Shown here one piece after another: positions 1-36,589 of a DNA stretch of 36,589 nt (positions within the stretch are counted from its first letter, which is position 1; the number at the start of each line of letters is the position of its first letter). Under the pieces are notes generated by a model. It saw only the letters and a list, made by a program, of their open reading frames with translations. It did not search any database and was not told the DNA's origin. The stretch spans positions 1 through 36,589 of the forward strand of contig JAZRLJ010000012.1 in NCBI GenBank assembly GCA_045646755.1, given 5' to 3'. This DNA is from Eubacteriales bacterium (GTDB lineage: Bacteria > Bacillota > Clostridia > Oscillospirales > CAG-272). A program made the translations under genes and the position numbers.

Positions 1-375
1 CGTTATTATCGTTGATGGAAAACAATTTTCTTGCTTAAAACCTATAAACTGCCCTGTTTTTAAAATATCGTATATCTCGTCAAAATGAGAGAGCTTGCTT
101 TTTATATAGTTGTATTTCTTTTCATTATGTTTCTTTAGATCAGAGGTAATTAAAAAATTATTCTTAATTAAGTCATACCCAGATTTCCCAAGATGTTTTT
201 TGGAATTATCGAATACATGCTGTAACCCTAAAAGGTGGCATAGGTTCTCTTTATAAAATCTGATAATTACACTATCGTTACATTTTTGCGTTTTATTTTG
301 CAGTTCATATTTAAATGCCTTATTACACAAATTGTTAGTGTAATTTTTAAGCAGGTTTTGAAGATTAACAGTCAT
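1..375 (-). CDS. N-terminal 125 codons of a protein that runs off the left window edge; putative RNase-like (PBECR/barnase-EndoU-type) toxin candidate
   Basis: ATG at 375-373 lies 7 nt after a GAGG SD. The frame is open to position 1 with no stop in the window, so it is absent from the ORF track. Translation: MTVNLQNLLKNYTNNLCNKAFKYELQ...VIIRFYKENLCHLLGLQHVFDNSKKHLGKSGYDLIKNNFL... The F-x-x-E-N-x-x-H-L-x-G-L segment recalls phage PBECR nuclease domains, from memory only. Confidence 0.55.
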   Translation of the reverse strand, partial: MTVNLQNLLKNYTNNLCNKAFKYELQNKTQKCNDSVIIRFYKENLCHLLGLQHVFDNSKKHLGKSGYDLIKNNFLITSDLKKHNEKKYNYIKSKLSHFDEIYDILKTGQFIGFKQENCFPSTIIT

Positions 376-393
376 AACTTTTCCTCGAAATAG

Positions 394-423
394 AAAAAAG
401 CGGATTGCGTCGCCGCAATCCGC
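394..423 (-). terminator. Rho-independent terminator sitting 19 nt upstream of the 375 start codon
   Basis: A perfect 10-bp stem GCGGATTGCG/CGCAATCCGC (400-409/414-423) with a 4-nt loop. On the minus strand it is followed by U6 (plus-strand A-run 394-399). Confidence 0.8.
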
Positions 424-581
424 CTCTTGAATAGCTGTTGGTTTTCACTACCCCAACCGGTCAACTTCGCTGTATGTTTTAATTCCCCAACGAAAGGGAT
501 GGCGCGGCTATTCCTCGCACCAATATTATGACTCGTTCAATAATTATATTATGCAATAATGATCAAACTTCACCATGTTTG
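424..581 (-). ncRNA. Structured non-coding leader or candidate regulatory/antitoxin RNA (unclassified)
   Basis: Lies between a consensus promoter (589-617) and the terminator (394-423) and has no ORF with an SD. A 7-bp closing helix (429-435/507-513) encloses two hairpins. Two imperfect ~24-nt direct repeats sit at 434-458 and 469-492 with a 35-nt period. Confidence 0.45.
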
Positions 582-588
582 TGGTAAT

Positions 589-617
589 ATTATAACACAA
601 AGCATCAGTTTTGTCAA
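589..617 (-). promoter_or_regulatory. Sigma-A type promoter driving the leader RNA and downstream ORF
   Basis: On the minus strand: TTGACA (617-612), a 17-nt spacer ending in TGT, then TATAAT (594-589). Both hexamers are perfect consensus and there is an extended -10 TG. Confidence 0.7.
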
Positions 618-742
618 TATATTATATGCGAAGTTGTTTTAAGTTGTCACATTTATAAAGATTCGTTTATCTTTTCACACAATATTTTTGCCTTATTAAC
701 AATTAACTAAAGTTATGGTAAAAATTTATATAATATTTTGTA

Positions 743-771
743 TTGAAAAAAACATAAATTTATGGTATAAT
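743..771 (+). promoter_or_regulatory. Sigma-A type promoter pointing into the 3' end of the convergent 829-1476 gene (antisense transcript?)
   Basis: TTGAAA (743-748), a 17-nt spacer ending in TGG, then TATAAT (766-771). No SD-preceded plus-strand ORF lies downstream. Confidence 0.5.
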
Positions 772-828
772 ATACCCACATCAGAACAGTTGTTCTTGCG
801 TTTTCTTAAATTGCAAAAATTATGTTCT

Positions 829-1476
829 TTAAACAAGGCTTTGCATATGTGAAAACAGAGTGTCCCGCCAAAAGAAGCCCATACCCGGATTCAAAGCATC
901 GAGAATAAGCGCCGTTATTAGTATCAAAACCGACACTCCAAGCAAAATCGACAACACCATTGCCGTTTTATTCCTTTGTTTTATAATCTGTAAGTAGTCG
1001 CCAAGAAGCTTATCTTTTGCAAGCATTTGTTCTTCCGTGAATTTGACTTGCTGCTTTAAATAGTCTATTTTTTTCTGTTCCGTTTCGTGTACTTCTGCAA
1101 TTTCTGCTTTATGAGTTTGTTTCATTTCTTCTAAGATCTTTTCAACATCAGCAGATTTGTTTGCATTCATAGCACACGGATGCTGTCCCCATGTTCCGTT
1201 AACAAGCACTTTGGTTACAGCTTGCATTGTGGTAACTCGAATATCCTTAACGTTTCCAGACATTATTCGTGCGACAGAAACTTCTGAAACGTCAGCAGCT
1301 TCAGCAATCTCTGAATTTGTTAAGTCTAAATATTCTTTCCTAATATGACACCATTCGCACCAACGTTCTGTGCTCATAGCCAAAAAATTGGGACCGTCAC
1401 AGTTAATTCCTATGTGTTCGCAGCTTATACATATGTTGTACGGCTTTGTGCGAAGCGTTTCCTTTGAAAATGGCAT
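829..1476 (-). CDS. Membrane-anchored, Cys-rich XRE-type HTH regulator
   Basis: 215 aa with a GAGAGG SD. It has an N-terminal Cys/His cluster (CISCEH..C..WCEWCH), an HTH (LTNSEIAEAADVSEVSVARIMSG), a coiled-coil middle and a C-terminal TM helix (AMVLSILLGVSVLILITALILDAL). Confidence 0.8.
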   Translation of the reverse strand: MPFSKETLRTKPYNICISCEHIGINCDGPNFLAMSTERWCEWCHIRKEYLDLTNSEIAEAADVSEVSVARIMSGNVKDIRVTTMQAVTKVLVNGTWGQHPCAMNANKSADVEKILEEMKQTHKAEIAEVHETEQKKIDYLKQQVKFTEEQMLAKDKLLGDYLQIIKQRNKTAMVLSILLGVSVLILITALILDALNPGMGFFWRDTLFSHMQSLV

Positions 1477-2217: not shown

Positions 2218-2379
2218 AAACACAGACAAGAGGAAACGAGTTCCCCTTTAAAAAACAATATGGAAAATAATAGTTTAGTTTATAACAGTTTGCATCAGTT
2301 ATCACTACTTATTATATCCGTTGTTTTTTAATTTGTCAACAAAAAATAGGAAAAAACAAGAAAAACGGAGGAAAAACGA

Positions 2380-2987: not shown

Positions 2988-3346
2988 AAGCACTTGCTAT
3001 TGTGATATATCAAGAGGCAGGCGGTGACGCTTGTTGTGATGATTGCCGAATGAGAGTAGCTGACGTTGTTCTGAATCGAGTTGAGGATGAACGCTTTCCC
3101 GACACCATAGAAGAAGTGCTTACCGCTCCAAAGCAGTACGGCAGATTATACCACACAGGGCTTAAGTGGGCGGAACGCTCAAAATTGACCGAGGAAGCCG
3201 AAGCAGTAGCAAGAGCATATGAGACGGCAGAGGCGGTATTAAGCGGCTCACACAGCGAATTATACGGCGAGGAGTACATATGGCAAGCGGAATTTAAGCA
3301 AGGCACGGATATAGTTGAGTGCTGCGGAATTTATTTCGGGAGGTAG
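2858..3346 (+). CDS. SleB-like cell-wall hydrolase domain protein (Hydrolase_2 type); start uncertain
   Basis: EIEALAIVIYQEAGGD...RVADVVLNRVEDERFPDTIEEVLTAPKQYG is the SleB/CwlJ-type motif set. No start codon lies downstream of the 130-nt overlap with 2691-2987, so a fusion by frameshift is possible. Confidence 0.7.
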   Translation: MESVECRPTEKVEKIPCARVAESKDLRCEEDSTDEREYTESEIEALAIVIYQEAGGDACCDDCRMRVADVVLNRVEDERFPDTIEEVLTAPKQYGRLYHTGLKWAERSKLTEEAEAVARAYETAEAVLSGSHSELYGEEYIWQAEFKQGTDIVECCGIYFGR

Positions 3347-26417: not shown

Positions 26418-29240
26418 ATGGCAACAGGCAACAGCGCAAGCATTGACTCTCTCGAATTAGATATACAATATAAAGCTACTAAAGCGGCAAGTCAAATAAA
26501 TAAGCTGGCAAAGGCATTAACCAACCTCAAAGAAGCTGCTTCGGGAGCTGAACTCGGACAAGTGTCTGAGGCGTTAAAAAACGCAGGCTCAAGCTCGGAT
26601 AAAGCAACAAGCTCTATAAGCAAATTTAAAAAAGCCTTAACTTTAGGCGGCACTTTGTACTCAATGAAGCGAGCCTACAACATGGTTAAGGAATGGGTAA
26701 ATCTCTCAATGGACTACATAGAAAACGTAAACCTTTTTACAGTTTCTATGGGTAAATTTGCTGACGAGGCAAAGGAATATGCAGAGGCAGTAAGTGAGGC
26801 AATGGGAATAGACCCGTCCGAATGGATGCGAAATCAGGGTGTCTTTATGACACTTGCTACCGGTTTTGGTATTGTTTCGGACAGAGCCTATATAATGTCT
26901 AAAAATCTTACTCAGCTAGGCTATGATATTTCGTCATTCTTCAATATTGATTATGCGGAAGCTATGCAGAAGCTACAGTCGGGTATTGCAGGTGAAATTG
27001 AGCCTCTTCGTAGACTTGGTTACGATATATCACAGGCAAAGCTCGAAGCAACGGCACTTTCTCTCGGCATTAATAAGCTCGTCAAAGATATGACTCAGGC
27101 TGAAAAAGCTGAACTGCGTTATTATGCTATTATGTCTCAGGTTACAACGGTACAGGGAGATATGGCAAGAACGCTCGAACAGCCTGCTAACCAAATGAGA
27201 ATATTAAAAGCGCAGATCACACAGACGGCACGTGCTATAGGTAATGTATTTATACCTATATTAAACGCCGTAATTCCCTATATCATTGCGTTTTTCAGAG
27301 TATTACGAGATGCTGCAGATATGCTTGCTGACCTCGTAGGCTTTGAGATGCCCGAAGTTGATTATGAGGACAATACGTTCGGTGAAATTTCTTCCGATAT
27401 GGACGATGCAACCGAAAGCGCTAAGAAGCTTAACAAACAGCTTGCAAGCTTTGATGAGATAAACAATATCACAATATCGGATAGCATTGAAACTAACAAT
27501 GGCATAGGCTCAGGCTTTGACTTTGAGCTTCCCGAATATGATTTTATCGGAGATGCTATTGAGGGTAAGGTTGACGTAGTTTATGGTCAGATGAAAGATA
27601 TTGCAGAGTTTGCTCTTGTATTTATATCGGCATTTACAGGAATAAAATTACTCCAAGGGATAGATGATATTGCTAAATCATTAAGTGGGCTTGCTACTAA
27701 TGCAATCAATAGTAAACTGCTTCCGGCTTTAGTAGGTGGGTTTGGACTTGCTTGGGGATTTAACCAAGTTAAATCCGCAGCCCGTAATTTTGCTTCGTAC
27801 ATGAGTGGGAACGGTCCATTGGGTTCTTCCCTTTATGAACTTGTAGGCGGTGTTGCAATTACTTCTGTTTCGGGAGCAATAATTGGTGGTTCTTTAGGTG
27901 GGTTGGCAGTAGGTGGTCCAGTTGGCGCTGTTATAGGCGGCATTCTTGGTATTGGTACAGCTATTGCGACAATTATTAATGATACCAAAAAATACAAAAT
28001 GGAAAATTTGTTGTCCCAGTTTTTTAGAGATACAGGTACGGATGTCGGATACTTATTTGAGAAAATAAGTGAGCTGTATGAGCCTTACAAAGAATATTTA
28101 GCAGATCAAGAAAATTTAAATGAAGAAGTTAAAACAGCAGCTGAAAAAGTCAACACATATCGTGACAGTGTTGATCAAATGCTTGAAAGTCTATCTCAAA
28201 GAGAGGAAATAAGTTCAAAAGATGTAGAAGACTTAGCTCAGGCGATAGACGATTTATATCAAGCGTCAATAACCTTAGATGTTGCAGAAACTAAAAGCGT
28301 AATGAGTTCGTTTGGACAAGCAATAAAATTAGGCATTGAACCCGGAAGGCAAGCCATTGAAGATATGCTAAATCAATACACATTGGCAAAAGAACTTCTT
28401 GGTGATGCAAAATGGCAAGATAATGCACGTGCTAAACAAATTCTCGAGAGTGCTAAACAAAGGGGATACTTTACAGAAGCAGAAAGCGCAGAAATTAAAG
28501 AAATAACCACAAGACTCGGAGCGGGCAACATACAACGCCAAGTAACAGGCAACATTGAAGTGCAACGGCTTATTGATAATGCAGCTGTAAATGGTCTGAA
28601 AGGCGACTGGGAGTCTGTCGAAGCAGATTTAAAAGAAGCTAAAAACGCAATTTCAGATTTTAGAGATGAGTTAACTTACTACGCAGATAAACAAATTGCG
28701 ATATATAAGGCTGACTACGCAGACTTAGAGGCTTATGGACTGTCTAAAGGTGTTGCAACGCCCGAAGAATATTCCAAAATAATATATAATAGTGTAAACG
28801 AAATGCTGAACGATGTTGCAAAAGAATATTCACCAGCTTTAGAAGTTATCAGAGATGCAATAGGAGAATATAGGTGGGATTATTCTGTAAACAGAGACAT
28901 TGGCTTTTTTGAAGATATTTGGTATTTTCTTGAAGGCATGGCAACGTTTACCCCTCATCAGGATGTTATTGATAATGCAGTTGCAAAAGAAATTTGGGGG
29001 CAAGTTGGAGGCATTATTACAGCACAAACTGAACTGGAAAATTTGCTTAGTACCGATCTTGTATCTTCGGTTGCTGAAGGGGTGTCAACCGCATTAGGAA
29101 ATCAAGGAGATGTTTCCATTAACGCTACAGTAGATGAAGGCGTTCTCTTTACCGCTATAGTAAACAAAAATGCTGAAGTAGTTTCAGCCACAGGAGAATC
29201 TCCGTTTATAACAAACAGACTTACAAGATACGCACAATAA
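26418..29240 (+). CDS. Tail tape measure protein (TP901-type core)
   Basis: 940 aa. The core reads AMGIDPSEWMRNQGVFMTLATGFG...LGYDISSFFN...QSGIAGEIEPLRRLGYDIS. A Gly-rich/TM central segment and long coiled-coils follow. Confidence 0.9.
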   Translation: MATGNSASIDSLELDIQYKATKAASQINKLAKALTNLKEAASGAELGQVSEALKNAGSSSDKATSSISKFKKALTLGGTLYSMKRAYNMVKEWVNLSMDYIENVNLFTVSMGKFADEAKEYAEAVSEAMGIDPSEWMRNQGVFMTLATGFGIVSDRAYIMSKNLTQLGYDISSFFNIDYAEAMQKLQSGIAGEIEPLRRLGYDISQAKLEATALSLGINKLVKDMTQAEKAELRYYAIMSQVTTVQGDMARTLEQPANQMRILKAQITQTARAIGNVFIPILNAVIPYIIAFFRVLRDAADMLADLVGFEMPEVDYEDNTFGEISSDMDDATESAKKLNKQLASFDEINNITISDSIETNNGIGSGFDFELPEYDFIGDAIEGKVDVVYGQMKDIAEFALVFISAFTGIKLLQGIDDIAKSLSGLATNAINSKLLPALVGGFGLAWGFNQVKSAARNFASYMSGNGPLGSSLYELVGGVAITSVSGAIIGGSLGGLAVGGPVGAVIGGILGIGTAIATIINDTKKYKMENLLSQFFRDTGTDVGYLFEKISELYEPYKEYLADQENLNEEVKTAAEKVNTYRDSVDQMLESLSQREEISSKDVEDLAQAIDDLYQASITLDVAETKSVMSSFGQAIKLGIEPGRQAIEDMLNQYTLAKELLGDAKWQDNARAKQILESAKQRGYFTEAESAEIKEITTRLGAGNIQRQVTGNIEVQRLIDNAAVNGLKGDWESVEADLKEAKNAISDFRDELTYYADKQIAIYKADYADLEAYGLSKGVATPEEYSKIIYNSVNEMLNDVAKEYSPALEVIRDAIGEYRWDYSVNRDIGFFEDIWYFLEGMATFTPHQDVIDNAVAKEIWGQVGGIITAQTELENLLSTDLVSSVAEGVSTALGNQGDVSINATVDEGVLFTAIVNKNAEVVSATGESPFITNRLTRYAQ

Positions 29241-34473: not shown

Positions 34474-35514
34474 TTATAATTTATTGGTTATTTCTCGCAA
34501 ATCTTCATACGAAACGTCTTGATAATACTGCAACATTTTGACGTCTGTGTGTCCTATCAAGCGGAGTTTATCTCGATCAGGAGCAGTAACATTCTTCAGC
34601 AGAGTTGCAAAAGTATGTCGGCACGAATGGGGCGTTAACGTATGGTCTGACTCGCTCTGTATTCCCATTTTTGACAACGCTTTGTAGAACTCCTTGTAAT
34701 AGACCTTTTGCGACATCTTAGAGCCGTCTTTGCTGAACAGATATCCATCAGGGTTAGTTTCTGCAAATCGTTCAATCAAGGGCAAAATTTTAGGTGAGAC
34801 GGTAACGATTCTGTTCTTCCCTGCCTCTGTCTTGATACCACCTTTAAGTGCTTTTTCTTCAGCGTCAAAATCGGAGGATTTAAGAGAAAGCAGCTCTTGC
34901 GGACGGAAACCTAAATAACAATGGCAATATATGATATCCGCAAACGGAACGACCCCTGCGCTATTTTTTATAATTTCCAATTCGTCAAGGTTAAATCCTC
35001 TCTTGTTTGACTGTACTGTTCCGGCTTTTACCTTAATATATTGCGGATAGTTTATGCGACCGACGTTATACCCTCTCGGTACAGCCCACTTATATATAAG
35101 ACCAAGAGCTATTTTTGCATTCTGACGAGTTCGAGTACCCTTATCCGTATTGTCTATGCAAGACTGCAGATCGTCTATATCCTGATTCGAGAGGTATATA
35201 TCCCAACACGGCTCAAATAATTTGAAACCCGATGCGTAGCAATTTATCGTGAGCCTTGAGGCTTCATAGTTTTCAATCCACTTATCATAAGCATCTTTAA
35301 GTGTAATTTCTCTTGGCTTTTCGGACATTTCTTTTTTAAGCTCGATTATATATTCAAGAGCCTTTGTTTTCGTCGGAAAGCCTTGTTTTGTCCTACGAAT
35401 AGGATTGCCGTCTGGCTTGTAACCTACGACGGCAATAGCTTTCCAATTGTTTACACCGACACGAATCGCAGAGCCTTGTCCGTTTCCTCTGCGTTTTATA
35501 CCTTTTTTTGCCAT
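34474..35514 (-). CDS. int: Tyrosine integrase
   Basis: 346 aa. The C-terminal catalytic motifs are HSCRHTFATLL and LIGHTDVKMLQYY. An N-terminal SAM-like/arm-binding region is present. Confidence 0.92.
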   Translation of the reverse strand: MAKKGIKRRGNGQGSAIRVGVNNWKAIAVVGYKPDGNPIRRTKQGFPTKTKALEYIIELKKEMSEKPREITLKDAYDKWIENYEASRLTINCYASGFKLFEPCWDIYLSNQDIDDLQSCIDNTDKGTRTRQNAKIALGLIYKWAVPRGYNVGRINYPQYIKVKAGTVQSNKRGFNLDELEIIKNSAGVVPFADIIYCHCYLGFRPQELLSLKSSDFDAEEKALKGGIKTEAGKNRIVTVSPKILPLIERFAETNPDGYLFSKDGSKMSQKVYYKEFYKALSKMGIQSESDHTLTPHSCRHTFATLLKNVTAPDRDKLRLIGHTDVKMLQYYQDVSYEDLREITNKL

Positions 35515-35816
35515 TATTCTAATCCTACTTGTGTTTTTACTATAACTTCTCCATCATAAAAGCCTATATTTGCATATGAGCCAAGCAACGGGTTACTATA
35601 CCAAATATAATAATCATAGTCCCAATTGCCTACAGAGGCTGAATATGATTCGTCATGCGTAGTTCCAAATATGTTGCGAACTTCAGTATATGACATTCCT
35701 ACTTGTATTCTGTTGTAATTGCCCAATGTAACATCAGAATCATTATTAAGTGTTATAAAAAGAAAAGAAAGAACGCCTAAAATTATAATTATTAAAAAGA
35801 ATCTCTTGCCGTTCAT
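35514..35816 (-). CDS. Membrane-anchored small protein, DUF3862/BLIP-like fold suspected
   Basis: An N-terminal TM/signal segment (FFLIIIILGVLSFLFITL) is followed by LGNYNRIQVGMSYTEVRNIFG...FYDGEVIVKTQVGL. Its stop overlaps the int start by 1 nt. Confidence 0.7.
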   Translation of the reverse strand: MNGKRFFLIIIILGVLSFLFITLNNDSDVTLGNYNRIQVGMSYTEVRNIFGTTHDESYSASVGNWDYDYYIWYSNPLLGSYANIGFYDGEVIVKTQVGLE

Positions 35817-35827
35817 AATTTAGCATC

Positions 35828-36376
35828 TCAATCTTGAAGCTCAGCGGTTGCCCACAAAACCTCAAAATATTCTCCGTTTTTCACCTCGACATAACATTGA
35901 AAATTGCCAGAATTCGAAGAAATAATCGAATCTATTTCGTGAGAAGCGTCTGCCCATCTATACCAACTTATATATCCGTCTTCATCAGTTGATGTTAGTT
36001 TGTACAAGCCCGGCGCTATATCTTTTCCTACAAGATACTCCCCTTCTCCAAATTTTGTTTTCAAACTGCCATAATAAGATGGGTGCGAAGTTGTATTCTT
36101 GCTTGTTAATGTAGCAGTAAACTTGTCCTGATTCCAATCTACAGACATACCGAGAGATGAGCCTATCGCACGGAGCGGAAGATATGTAGTGCCGTTGTAC
36201 AGTACCGGGTAGACCTGAGTACCTGCCGCATCGTAAAATTCTTGTTCAACATCGTCTATTACCACTTTCAGATCGGGGCGTAACTGTGCCGTAATGGTCT
36301 TAATAGCCGGAGCAGCCATTACTCCAAATGCGAATATTAATAATGCTGCTGTAATTGTTATTATTTTCTTTTTCAT
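35828..36376 (-). CDS. Secreted protein with a copper-amine-oxidase N-terminal-like (stalk) domain
   Basis: A signal peptide (MKKKIITITAALLIFAFGVMA) is followed by VYPVLYNGTTYLPLRAIGSSLGMSVDWNQ. The C-terminal domain is unassigned. Confidence 0.75.
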   Translation of the reverse strand: MKKKIITITAALLIFAFGVMAAPAIKTITAQLRPDLKVVIDDVEQEFYDAAGTQVYPVLYNGTTYLPLRAIGSSLGMSVDWNQDKFTATLTSKNTTSHPSYYGSLKTKFGEGEYLVGKDIAPGLYKLTSTDEDGYISWYRWADASHEIDSIISSNSGNFQCYVEVKNGEYFEVLWATAELQD

Positions 36377-36589
36377 TGTGATTGCTCCTCTTTACTATTT
36401 ATAATAATCTCTTCAAATTTAATTATTTCCTTATATGTTTGGTTATTTATATATTGATAAAAATGCTTGTCTTTATTTGTATGTACGATAAAAGAAATGG
36501 GTGAATAATGTTTTTTGCTATTTAGTTCTTTTCGCAAAAACAAATGCAATATATACGTATAGTTGTTTTTTATAAGCAGAAAATCTGCC
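36373..36589 (-). CDS. C-terminal 71 codons of an ORF entering from the right window edge
   Basis: Open from 36588 down to TGA at 36375-36373, which overlaps the next gene's ATG as ATGA. Translation: ADFLLIKNNYTYILHLFLRKELNSKKHYSPISFIVHTNKDKHFYQYINNQTYKEIIKFEEIIINSKEEQSQ. There is no Met in the visible part. Confidence 0.55.
   Translation of the reverse strand, partial: ADFLLIKNNYTYILHLFLRKELNSKKHYSPISFIVHTNKDKHFYQYINNQTYKEIIKFEEIIINSKEEQSQ

Follow-up and report, generated by a model that had tools for sequence, protein, structure and literature searches.

The stretch analysed here (referred to as the window) is the 36,589-nt contig JAZRLJ010000012.1 from a Eubacteriales bacterium, a complete, circularly permuted and phage-sized sequence (36.6 kb, 40% GC). 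At its left end, on the minus strand, it carries in succession a promoter, a conserved structured RNA, an intrinsic terminator and a gene for a protein of the Pfam family PBECR4. A preliminary description made from the letters of the window had pointed to a perfect TTGACA-17-TATAAT promoter at 617–589, and closer inspection bore this out. The sigma-70 promoter (589..617, minus strand) consists of TTGACA (617–612) and TATAAT (594–589) around a 17-nt spacer, agrees with the consensus at all 12 positions, with a TG ahead of the –10 element; promoters near consensus also lie 5′ of the RNA in homologous loci. The resulting transcript is predicted to begin with a 5′ leader (526..582, minus strand) that forms an AU-rich hairpin and whose sequence is not conserved between loci, followed by the conserved core and then by the terminator (395..428, minus strand). 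The latter was recovered by a stem-loop and T-run scan as 15 pairs from 428 (7 of them G-C) with a 4-nt loop and a T run, its G-C core lying at 424–414/409–399 around the loop GCGA and before U6 at 399–394. The ~185-nt non-coding transcript ending in a strong intrinsic terminator that had been proposed earlier thus stands. Terminator-like sites occur at 6 per 2.5 kb, against 1.3 expected from shuffles, and the 196-nt transcript region is more stably folded than its shuffles (z –3.6). Downstream of the terminator, and after a gap of 19 nt, follows the open reading frame (ORF) of the PBECR4 gene, with the anticipated Shine-Dalgarno sequence GAGGA at 386–382 and ATG at 375–373 (373..386, minus strand), which runs off position 1.

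Because the window is circular and its first and last base are the same (positions 1 and 36589, a 1-nt overlap for which the junction was checked against contig L001), the PBECR4 gene is split over both window ends. Specifically, codons 1–125 lie at 1..375 (minus strand) and, as the comparison with L001 indicates, codons 126–196 and the TGA stop continue across the circular junction at 36373..36588 (minus strand). The part encoded at the left end already matches PBECR4 (Pfam PF18813) over the first 105 of 188 profile positions with an E-value of 3.8e-10 and 40.9 bits (cut-off 27), in agreement with the PBECR-type assignment made earlier, and the full-length 196-aa protein P0001, which is found on two other contigs and is 100% identical over the 125 window residues, carries PF18813 as well. 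A profile search yielded at least 297 PBECR4 proteins, and the best 120 of these 297 are nearly all ~160–250 aa long. An AlphaFold2 model built from 48 sequences (predicted local distance difference test score, pLDDT, of 94) places H47 in a helix and S157 in a C-terminal strand, both residues being invariant in the 48 sequences, and this arrangement fits the His plus Ser/Thr configuration given for PBECR domains (Iyer et al. 2017, PMC5512222). Foldseek against BFVD returned one unnamed phage protein (E 1e-4) together with weak matches to polyvalent and MuF-like phage proteins, and PHROGs yielded a family of unknown function only.

The conserved core of the RNA (~100 nt, 426..525, minus strand) is the sole match in the window to our covariance model R1 (98 bits, E about 1e-19), and contains three pseudoknots, all on the minus strand. 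The hairpin P0 (521–516/506–501, GGUGYG/CRYGCC) exposes the loop sequence GAAUAGC, which pairs with the 3′ end GCUAUUC of the core into the 7-bp helix P1 (513–507/435–429), so that P0 and P1 make up the first pseudoknot. The second one, referred to as module A, is of the H-type, with S1 (499–495/488–484, UCCYU/GRGGA) interleaved with S2 (494–489/471–466) and an A-rich loop AUUAAAAYAUAC at 483–472. In the third, referred to as module B, the ACC at 461–459 pairs with the GGU at 452–450 in the loop of hairpin P3 (457–453/441–437), giving the same topology as that of module A. The 7-bp closing helix seen in the preliminary description is therefore real and corresponds to P1. The two hairpins thought to be enclosed by it do exist as two elements, but both are pseudoknot modules rather than plain hairpins. 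The two direct repeats of ~24 nt proposed at the same time turned out to correspond to the 3′ portions of modules A and B; their similarity is detectable in the window (a 15-nt core of 80% identity, 34 nt apart, z 3.5), but fades to a mean z of 1.25 across the family. Since each locus yields a single R1 match and no tandem array of the RNA, and since the modules are alike in architecture, we rejected a tandem-repeat reading in favour of one folded unit of ~100 nt.

Comparative evidence shows that this leader core is a real structured RNA. After alignment of 39 sequences to the covariance model, 98.6% of the cells were standard pairs, a value that dropped to 34–49% when the 3′ partners were slid by 1–3 columns. 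Moreover, compensatory changes on both sides were found in 20 of the 33 pairs, and the observed covariation was reached by none of 500 shuffles. The alignment comprises five helices plus a sixth, P1, that is invariant within the RNA type of the window (type A). Across RNA types P1 does covary, as GAUAGA/UCUAUU, GGUGGC/GCCACU, GGUGA/UCACC, GGUGGC/GCCACC, AGUAGC/GCUACU and GAGUGA/UCACUC, and the ACC/GGU helix of module B is replaced by UCC/GGA and UUC/GAA in divergent members. Besides the helices, the core also contains conserved unpaired nucleotides. No Rfam family (Rfam 15) was found in window positions 1–830 even at E≤10, and a search of eight related loci at E≤1 left the RNA itself unmatched, the matches to RF01691 (Bacillus-plasmid) and RF03075 (DUF3800-VIII) adjoining the RNA without covering it. 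The leader thus has no match to a metabolite riboswitch, a match that the preliminary description had named as one that would refute it.

The distribution of the RNA was determined independently of the protein, via sequence-pattern scans of IMG/VR, GTDB and the JGI and ENA metagenomes. IMG/VR contained 2 real loci, the same two that were returned by a protein-pattern scan of that database; GTDB (one genome per species) contained 6, all in Clostridia and including metagenome-assembled genomes of Acutalibacteraceae as well as Anaerobutyricum hallii DSM 3353; and the JGI and ENA metagenomes contained 57 among 68 stretches, many of them from human gut or fermentation samples. A looser pattern (TTGACC..GGTAG) gave for the most part chance matches in IMG/VR, and neither blastn with the window locus against GenBank phages nor tblastn with P0001 against phages gave a match. 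Homologues with 45–57% protein identity showed ~100 near-invariant nucleotides upstream, followed by a terminator of unconserved sequence.

Together these scans yielded 35 distinct type-A RNA sequences, 22 of which have a PBECR4 gene directly 3′ within about 150 nt. In all 22 of these loci a terminator hairpin with a T run follows within 60 nt of the RNA, with the ORF another 20–50 nt further on, a gap too small to accommodate a separate PBECR4 promoter. Three further RNAs are placed differently: one lies just 3′ of PBECR4 (L170), one precedes a PBECR3 gene (L165 12671–13347, Pfam E 4e-25) and one precedes a DUF3800 gene (L168 5971–6834). Of the remainder, one is on a contig too short to judge and about nine have no nearby nuclease. 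The copies without an adjoining nuclease are mostly found in phages. The L165 and L168 cases show that the RNA is not restricted to one nuclease family, and the association of RNA and PBECR4 is independent of gene order and nuclease family. In L170 (4745–6849) the arrangement is the other way round: a divergent PBECR4 gene comes first, followed by the RNA, the terminator and then a TIR-like protein (weak Pfam match), and a HigA/HigB-like pair of ORFs, judged by eye, lies on the opposite strand; this region may be a defence island.

When approached from the side of the protein, the linkage was strict in the loci looked up. For ten Clostridial PBECR4 proteins that were looked up (P0001, 2, 3, 6, 35, 100, 113, 114, 120 and 102; 36–100% identity to the window's protein), the RNA was present upstream in all ten, at a distance of 100–150 nt and with R1 scores of 53–127 bits. 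The preliminary description had named a leader not conserved beside homologues of the ORF as a finding that would speak against it, and the leader proved to be present at every homologue examined. In total, 16 of 16 protein-anchored loci, a modest sample that spans 23–100% protein identity and three RNA types, carried an identically placed and oriented RNA, and no intact PBECR4 gene without RNA was seen among them. The genomic settings of the module include the integrase arm of prophages (window, L003), plain chromosomal sites (L009, L150, L227), a mobile-element region (L223–L226) close to a relaxase or, in the related contigs, to an integrase, and the small plasmids pSD853_7.9 and pLM14. RNA and PBECR4 therefore travel as one unit between unrelated settings.

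The more distant relatives extend this pattern to two other RNA types. PBECR4 proteins encoded on Bacillus, Heyndrickxia and Paenibacillus plasmids and on the 7.9-kb pSD853_7.9 are 25–33% identical to that of the window, and in each of the three Bacillus-type plasmid loci examined the gene is preceded by its own promoter, a conserved RNA and a terminator. This type-B RNA has the architecture of type A with other helix sequences, and the best (weak) matches of R1 fall exactly there. Likewise, an RNA was found upstream of all three PBECR4-like genes of Staphylococcus phages and a Streptococcus satellite, which lie between lysin and integrase. This third variant (type C), segmented by eye only, is strongly diverged and retains P0, P1 and the terminator; RNA and terminator are located at 1500–1985 of L236 (Staphylococcus phage Rih21), 1484–1985 of L237 (Staphylococcus phage phiRS7) and 1500–1990 of L238 (Streptococcus satellite Javan201). 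Copies in L240 and in the Bacillus subtilis phage SPbeta are intermediates that join types A and B. Since types A, B and C co-occur with distinct protein groups, the RNA type tracks the protein clade. With regard to pSD853_7.9 (L232), an RF01691 RNA (1121–1174, minus strand, 59.5 bits) is encoded on the strand opposite to that of the PBECR4-associated RNA, ~100 nt upstream of it, and the record is labelled Salmonella, yet the plasmid has Gram-positive features (a MobV relaxase and the RF01691 motif).

Copies of the RNA also occur in phages that lack the nuclease. A blastn search with the type-B RNA matched 27 Bacillus phages, in none of which the RNA was an annotated feature, and a type-B pattern scan of IMG/VR returned SPO1 only. 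In SPO1 (NC_011421; L234 about 2990–3095) the RNA is located at about 28040–28145, 77 nt upstream of a tRNA-Asn/Arg/Ser/Met cluster. An additional 8-bp helix (CAUGAUAU/AUAUCAUG) encloses it there, and SP82G, CampHawk and the Goe phages contain this RNA as well. In SPbeta (NC_001884; L235 2976–3072) it sits inside a 1.7-kb gap between yonN (HU-like) and yonK, with a 62-nt core identical to that of pSD853_7.9 and differing P0 and P1 helices. PBECR4 was not detectable in SPO1, SPbeta or the other Bacillus phages of the collection. Among type-A orphans, the RNA of L153 lies 5 nt from a tRNA-Gln gene and ahead of the gene for the terminase small subunit; in four phage contigs from fermentation metagenomes it precedes an HU-like gene, and in two more it stands among tail genes. 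In SPO1, SPbeta and the gut phages, compensatory changes have preserved all helices of the orphan copies, which indicates that these are under selection as RNAs.

These orphan copies bear on the question of whether the linkage to PBECR4 is meaningful at all. The RNA could belong to phages or mobile elements in its own right, for example as a ribozyme or as a small RNA directed at the host, and merely share accessory regions with PBECR4. Such an explanation would accommodate the about ten of 35 distinct RNAs without a neighbouring nuclease, as well as the RNA-rich intergenic region of SPbeta, where the orphan lies about 230 nt from a DUF3800-VIII RNA (L235 3301–3366; 47.5 bits in Rfam, exceeding the gathering score). 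Chance co-residence nevertheless fails to explain 16 of 16 protein-anchored loci with an identically placed and oriented RNA, non-phage chromosomal sites included, and we consider this explanation the least probable of those weighed here.

A different possibility, put forward as one of two options in the preliminary description, is that the RNA is a cis-acting riboswitch or attenuator through which a ligand or protein sets read-through into the nuclease gene. In most loci the RNA does occupy the 5′ untranslated region just before a terminator, and its strongly conserved unpaired nucleotides and pseudoknots resemble those of many aptamers. However, no Rfam family matches it, and no conserved antiterminator was found: in a search of 19 loci, pairing between the 5′ arm of the terminator and the core was no better than that of shuffled arms and inconsistent in position, and the terminator was kept in every minimum-energy fold. 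Moreover, the RNA occurs where nothing downstream is left to regulate, as before the tRNA genes of SPO1 and L153 and after PBECR4 in L170, and also near structural or HU genes of phages, where a terminator is lacking, and the genes downstream of it (tRNA, HU, phage tail genes) have no common metabolic theme. The lack of an antiterminator together with the copies before tRNA genes, after PBECR4 and without terminators makes a cis-acting ligand switch unlikely.

Similarly, the RNA might serve solely as an autoregulatory operator, with PBECR4 binding or cleaving its own leader, without any antitoxin role and with the orphans as decayed remnants. The constant cis arrangement would suit such an operator, as would the description of BECR-fold proteins as RNA-binding nucleases (PMC5512222). 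Against it stand the orphans of SPO1, SPbeta and gut phages, in which every helix is kept by compensatory changes, and the location of the SPO1 RNA within a tRNA operon, enclosed by its extra 8-bp helix. We therefore regard autoregulation alone as improbable.

Decay of the locus, moreover, is asymmetric. In 20 contigs of A. hallii (L148, which is DSM 3353, and 19 from metagenomes) the RNA and terminator are intact and PBECR4 has been shortened to 63 aa. L182 and L189 have lost the PBECR4 gene by deletion and keep RNA and terminator, and L207 is a further locus with a truncated or deleted PBECR4. In L162 (2735–2807) and L192 (75–180), on the other hand, unrelated sequence stands in place of the RNA's 5′ half and no more than a fragment of PBECR4 is left, so that these look like decayed or rearranged loci. 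An RNA that outlives its truncated or deleted nuclease, next to an intact nuclease that was not seen without the RNA in the protein-anchored loci, is as expected of an antidote.

This might in turn indicate that the locus is a type III-like module (or an abortive-infection module) of an RNA antitoxin and a nuclease toxin, a function that we infer and to which we assign about an even chance. In such a module the constitutive promoter would drive synthesis of the ~185-nt RNA, the ~100-nt core of which would fold compactly with its three pseudoknots, and the intrinsic terminator would halt most transcripts and so leave a surplus of free RNA. A read-through minority would also encode PBECR4, a predicted metal-independent endoribonuclease of the BECR fold, which the RNA would bind and neutralise. 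Shut-off of transcription or breakdown of the RNA, for instance during phage infection, would then free the nuclease. In the phages that carry the RNA only (SPO1, SPbeta and several gut and fermentation phages), it might mimic the antitoxin and so counter such modules. Phage PhiTE, studied by Blower et al. in 2012, reportedly carries a pseudo-ToxI, and phages are said to be able to carry antitoxin-like RNA in order to escape. The broader proposal, in which the module stands for a widespread toxin-antitoxin or abortive-infection class of Bacillota, with a ~100-nt RNA of three pseudoknots that neutralises PBECR4 (occasionally PBECR3) and with the orphans of SPO1 and SPbeta, some of them in tRNA operons, as anti-defence decoys, is a plausible but more tentative one, which we hold at somewhat less than even likelihood. 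Of the two options raised in the preliminary description, the new pairing of an RNA antitoxin with a nuclease is thus the favoured one, and the riboswitch or attenuator is disfavoured by the gene-free, downstream, tRNA-side and PBECR3 copies and by the missing antiterminator. Its type III layout was confirmed as far as promoter, structured RNA, terminator and RNase-like ORF are concerned, but not with respect to a repeat RNA, as the RNA is a single folded unit.

The main rival to an antitoxin is an RNA that acts as a positive partner of PBECR4, being the scaffold, the specificity or guide subunit or the sensor of an active ribonucleoprotein, with the phage copies serving the phage. Co-occurrence, co-diversification and independence of gene order also fit such a partner, and the conserved unpaired nucleotides and tertiary pseudoknots exceed what simple sequestration would need. 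In addition, Weinberg et al. 2017 (PMC5737381) describe comparably conserved motifs with 3′ terminators that accompany one protein family and have no known function. Nevertheless, a cofactor has no reason to outlive its enzyme, and the RNA persists where the nuclease is truncated or deleted; orphans in lytic phages without any PBECR4 are likewise hard to explain as cofactors. We therefore consider a positive partner unlikely, yet the strongest of the alternatives.

A number of observations weigh against the antitoxin proposal. The same data can be reconciled with an RNA that guides or activates the nuclease, or that the nuclease processes, instead of one that inhibits it, and for about a third of the distinct RNAs there is no adjoining nuclease, so that the RNA may serve a function of its own. 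Unlike every canonical type III antitoxin, it is no array of tandem repeats. The ribonuclease activity of PBECR4 is a prediction at the level of the family (PMC5512222). Foldseek with the pLDDT 94 model against PDB yielded neither a significant match nor a solved BECR structure, and a PDB sequence search found no relative; the putative nuclease fold that had been suspected from the sequence is based on the Pfam match and the invariant His/Ser pair, and the structure search did not confirm it. PADLOC gave no hit. Finally, the RNA sets were collected by sequence patterns, which inflates the apparent invariance in GAAUAGCC, UUGACC, GGUAG and GCUAUUC, and P1 is supported despite this forced invariance because divergent members use six other complementary sequences in its place.

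With ToxIN, CptIN and TenpIN the module shares the order of promoter, non-coding RNA, intrinsic terminator and nuclease gene (here in the window and in the 22 of 22 loci), a pseudoknotted RNA and residence on plasmids, prophages and chromosomes. Canonical type III antitoxins are tandem repeats of 34–45 nt that are cut by the toxin into monomers. The RNA examined here, in contrast, is one ~100-nt unit, the halves of which are alike mainly in architecture, and its candidate toxin is assigned by Pfam to PBECR4 only and not to the ToxN/AbiQ, CptN or TenpN families, with PADLOC silent on it. Since its antitoxin is not a repeat array and its toxin is of another family, the module is not a member of ToxIN, CptIN or TenpIN.

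The closest experimentally studied analogue is AbiF-RCd22 of C. difficile. RCd22 is a prophage-borne RNA with two abiF motifs that neutralises the AbiF toxin by direct binding, acts in cis as well as in trans, and has been called type III-like; abiF was first seen as a conserved RNA motif, and AbiF belongs to the Abi_2/AbiD/F family, which the authors link structurally to an ancestral Cas13 (PMC12373285). Prophage carriage and a structured RNA, not built of simple repeats, upstream of a protein (toxic in the case of AbiF) are common to both systems. The protein families (Abi_2/AbiD/F versus BECR-fold PBECR4) and RNA families differ, and the present module is known from sequence only. Weinberg et al. 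2017 (PMC5737381) further describe complex conserved RNAs that are followed by terminators, are linked to one protein family on either side and are judged unlikely to be riboswitches or ribozymes. A likeness to these lies in the RNA before the DUF3800 gene of L168 and in the SPbeta RNA ~230 nt from a DUF3800-VIII RNA, but their Rfam models do not match the present RNA, and the partner here is PBECR4. For PBECR domains of polyvalent proteins, Iyer et al. 2017 (PMC5512222) proposed a role as injected offensive effectors and mentioned no RNA partner. The window's protein resembles these in its Pfam PBECR4 domain, its H47/S157 configuration and its weak Foldseek matches to polyvalent and MuF-like proteins; it differs in being a stand-alone protein in the position of lysogeny-arm cargo, always preceded by the RNA in the protein-anchored loci (n=16).

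Our search of the literature found no paper that ties PBECR4 to an RNA. If the antitoxin proposal is true, a new toxin fold (BECR) and a non-repetitive RNA architecture would be added to the RNA-antitoxin systems, and solo PBECR4 proteins would obtain their first functional context. Rfam does not contain the RNA family itself, for which the support from covariation is unusually strong. The family moreover indicates unannotated RNA genes in SPO1 and SPbeta, two classic phages of Bacillus subtilis in which the antitoxin and decoy ideas are directly testable, and it bears on why odd structured RNAs stand beside phage tRNA genes.

With regard to its surroundings in the window, the module is flanked on its 5′ side by helix-turn-helix (HTH) regulators, and on its 3′ side, on the same strand, by genes for a Cu_amine_oxidN1-domain protein, a BLIP/DUF3862-like protein and the integrase. 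This places it in the lysogeny arm of a temperate phage, in agreement with the int-to-cI location given in the preliminary description. The two small genes between PBECR4 and the integrase span 35514–36376 (minus strand). The TGA stop of PBECR4 overlaps the ATG (36376) of the first one, which thus starts within an ATGA overlap and encodes a hydrophobic N-terminus ahead of its Cu_amine_oxidN1 domain, and the second one, the BLIP/DUF3862-like gene, is absent from the related contig L001. ARAGORN found no tRNA or tmRNA in the window, so that the RNA is not tRNA-like by that test. A role for the RNA as attachment-site marker was considered and dropped, as the module is also found at non-prophage sites and does not adjoin the end of int. 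On the side of the regulators, another perfect TTGACA-17-TATAAT promoter (2311–2339, minus strand) precedes a same-strand XRE-family HTH gene (1795–2130), the 3′ part of which contains a strong plus-strand terminator (1897–1926). A 215-aa protein encoded at 829–1476 (minus strand) gave a weak HTH match, and its C-terminal segment is hydrophobic; this protein, the second promoter and the 1897–1926 terminator are probably parts of the lysogeny switch.

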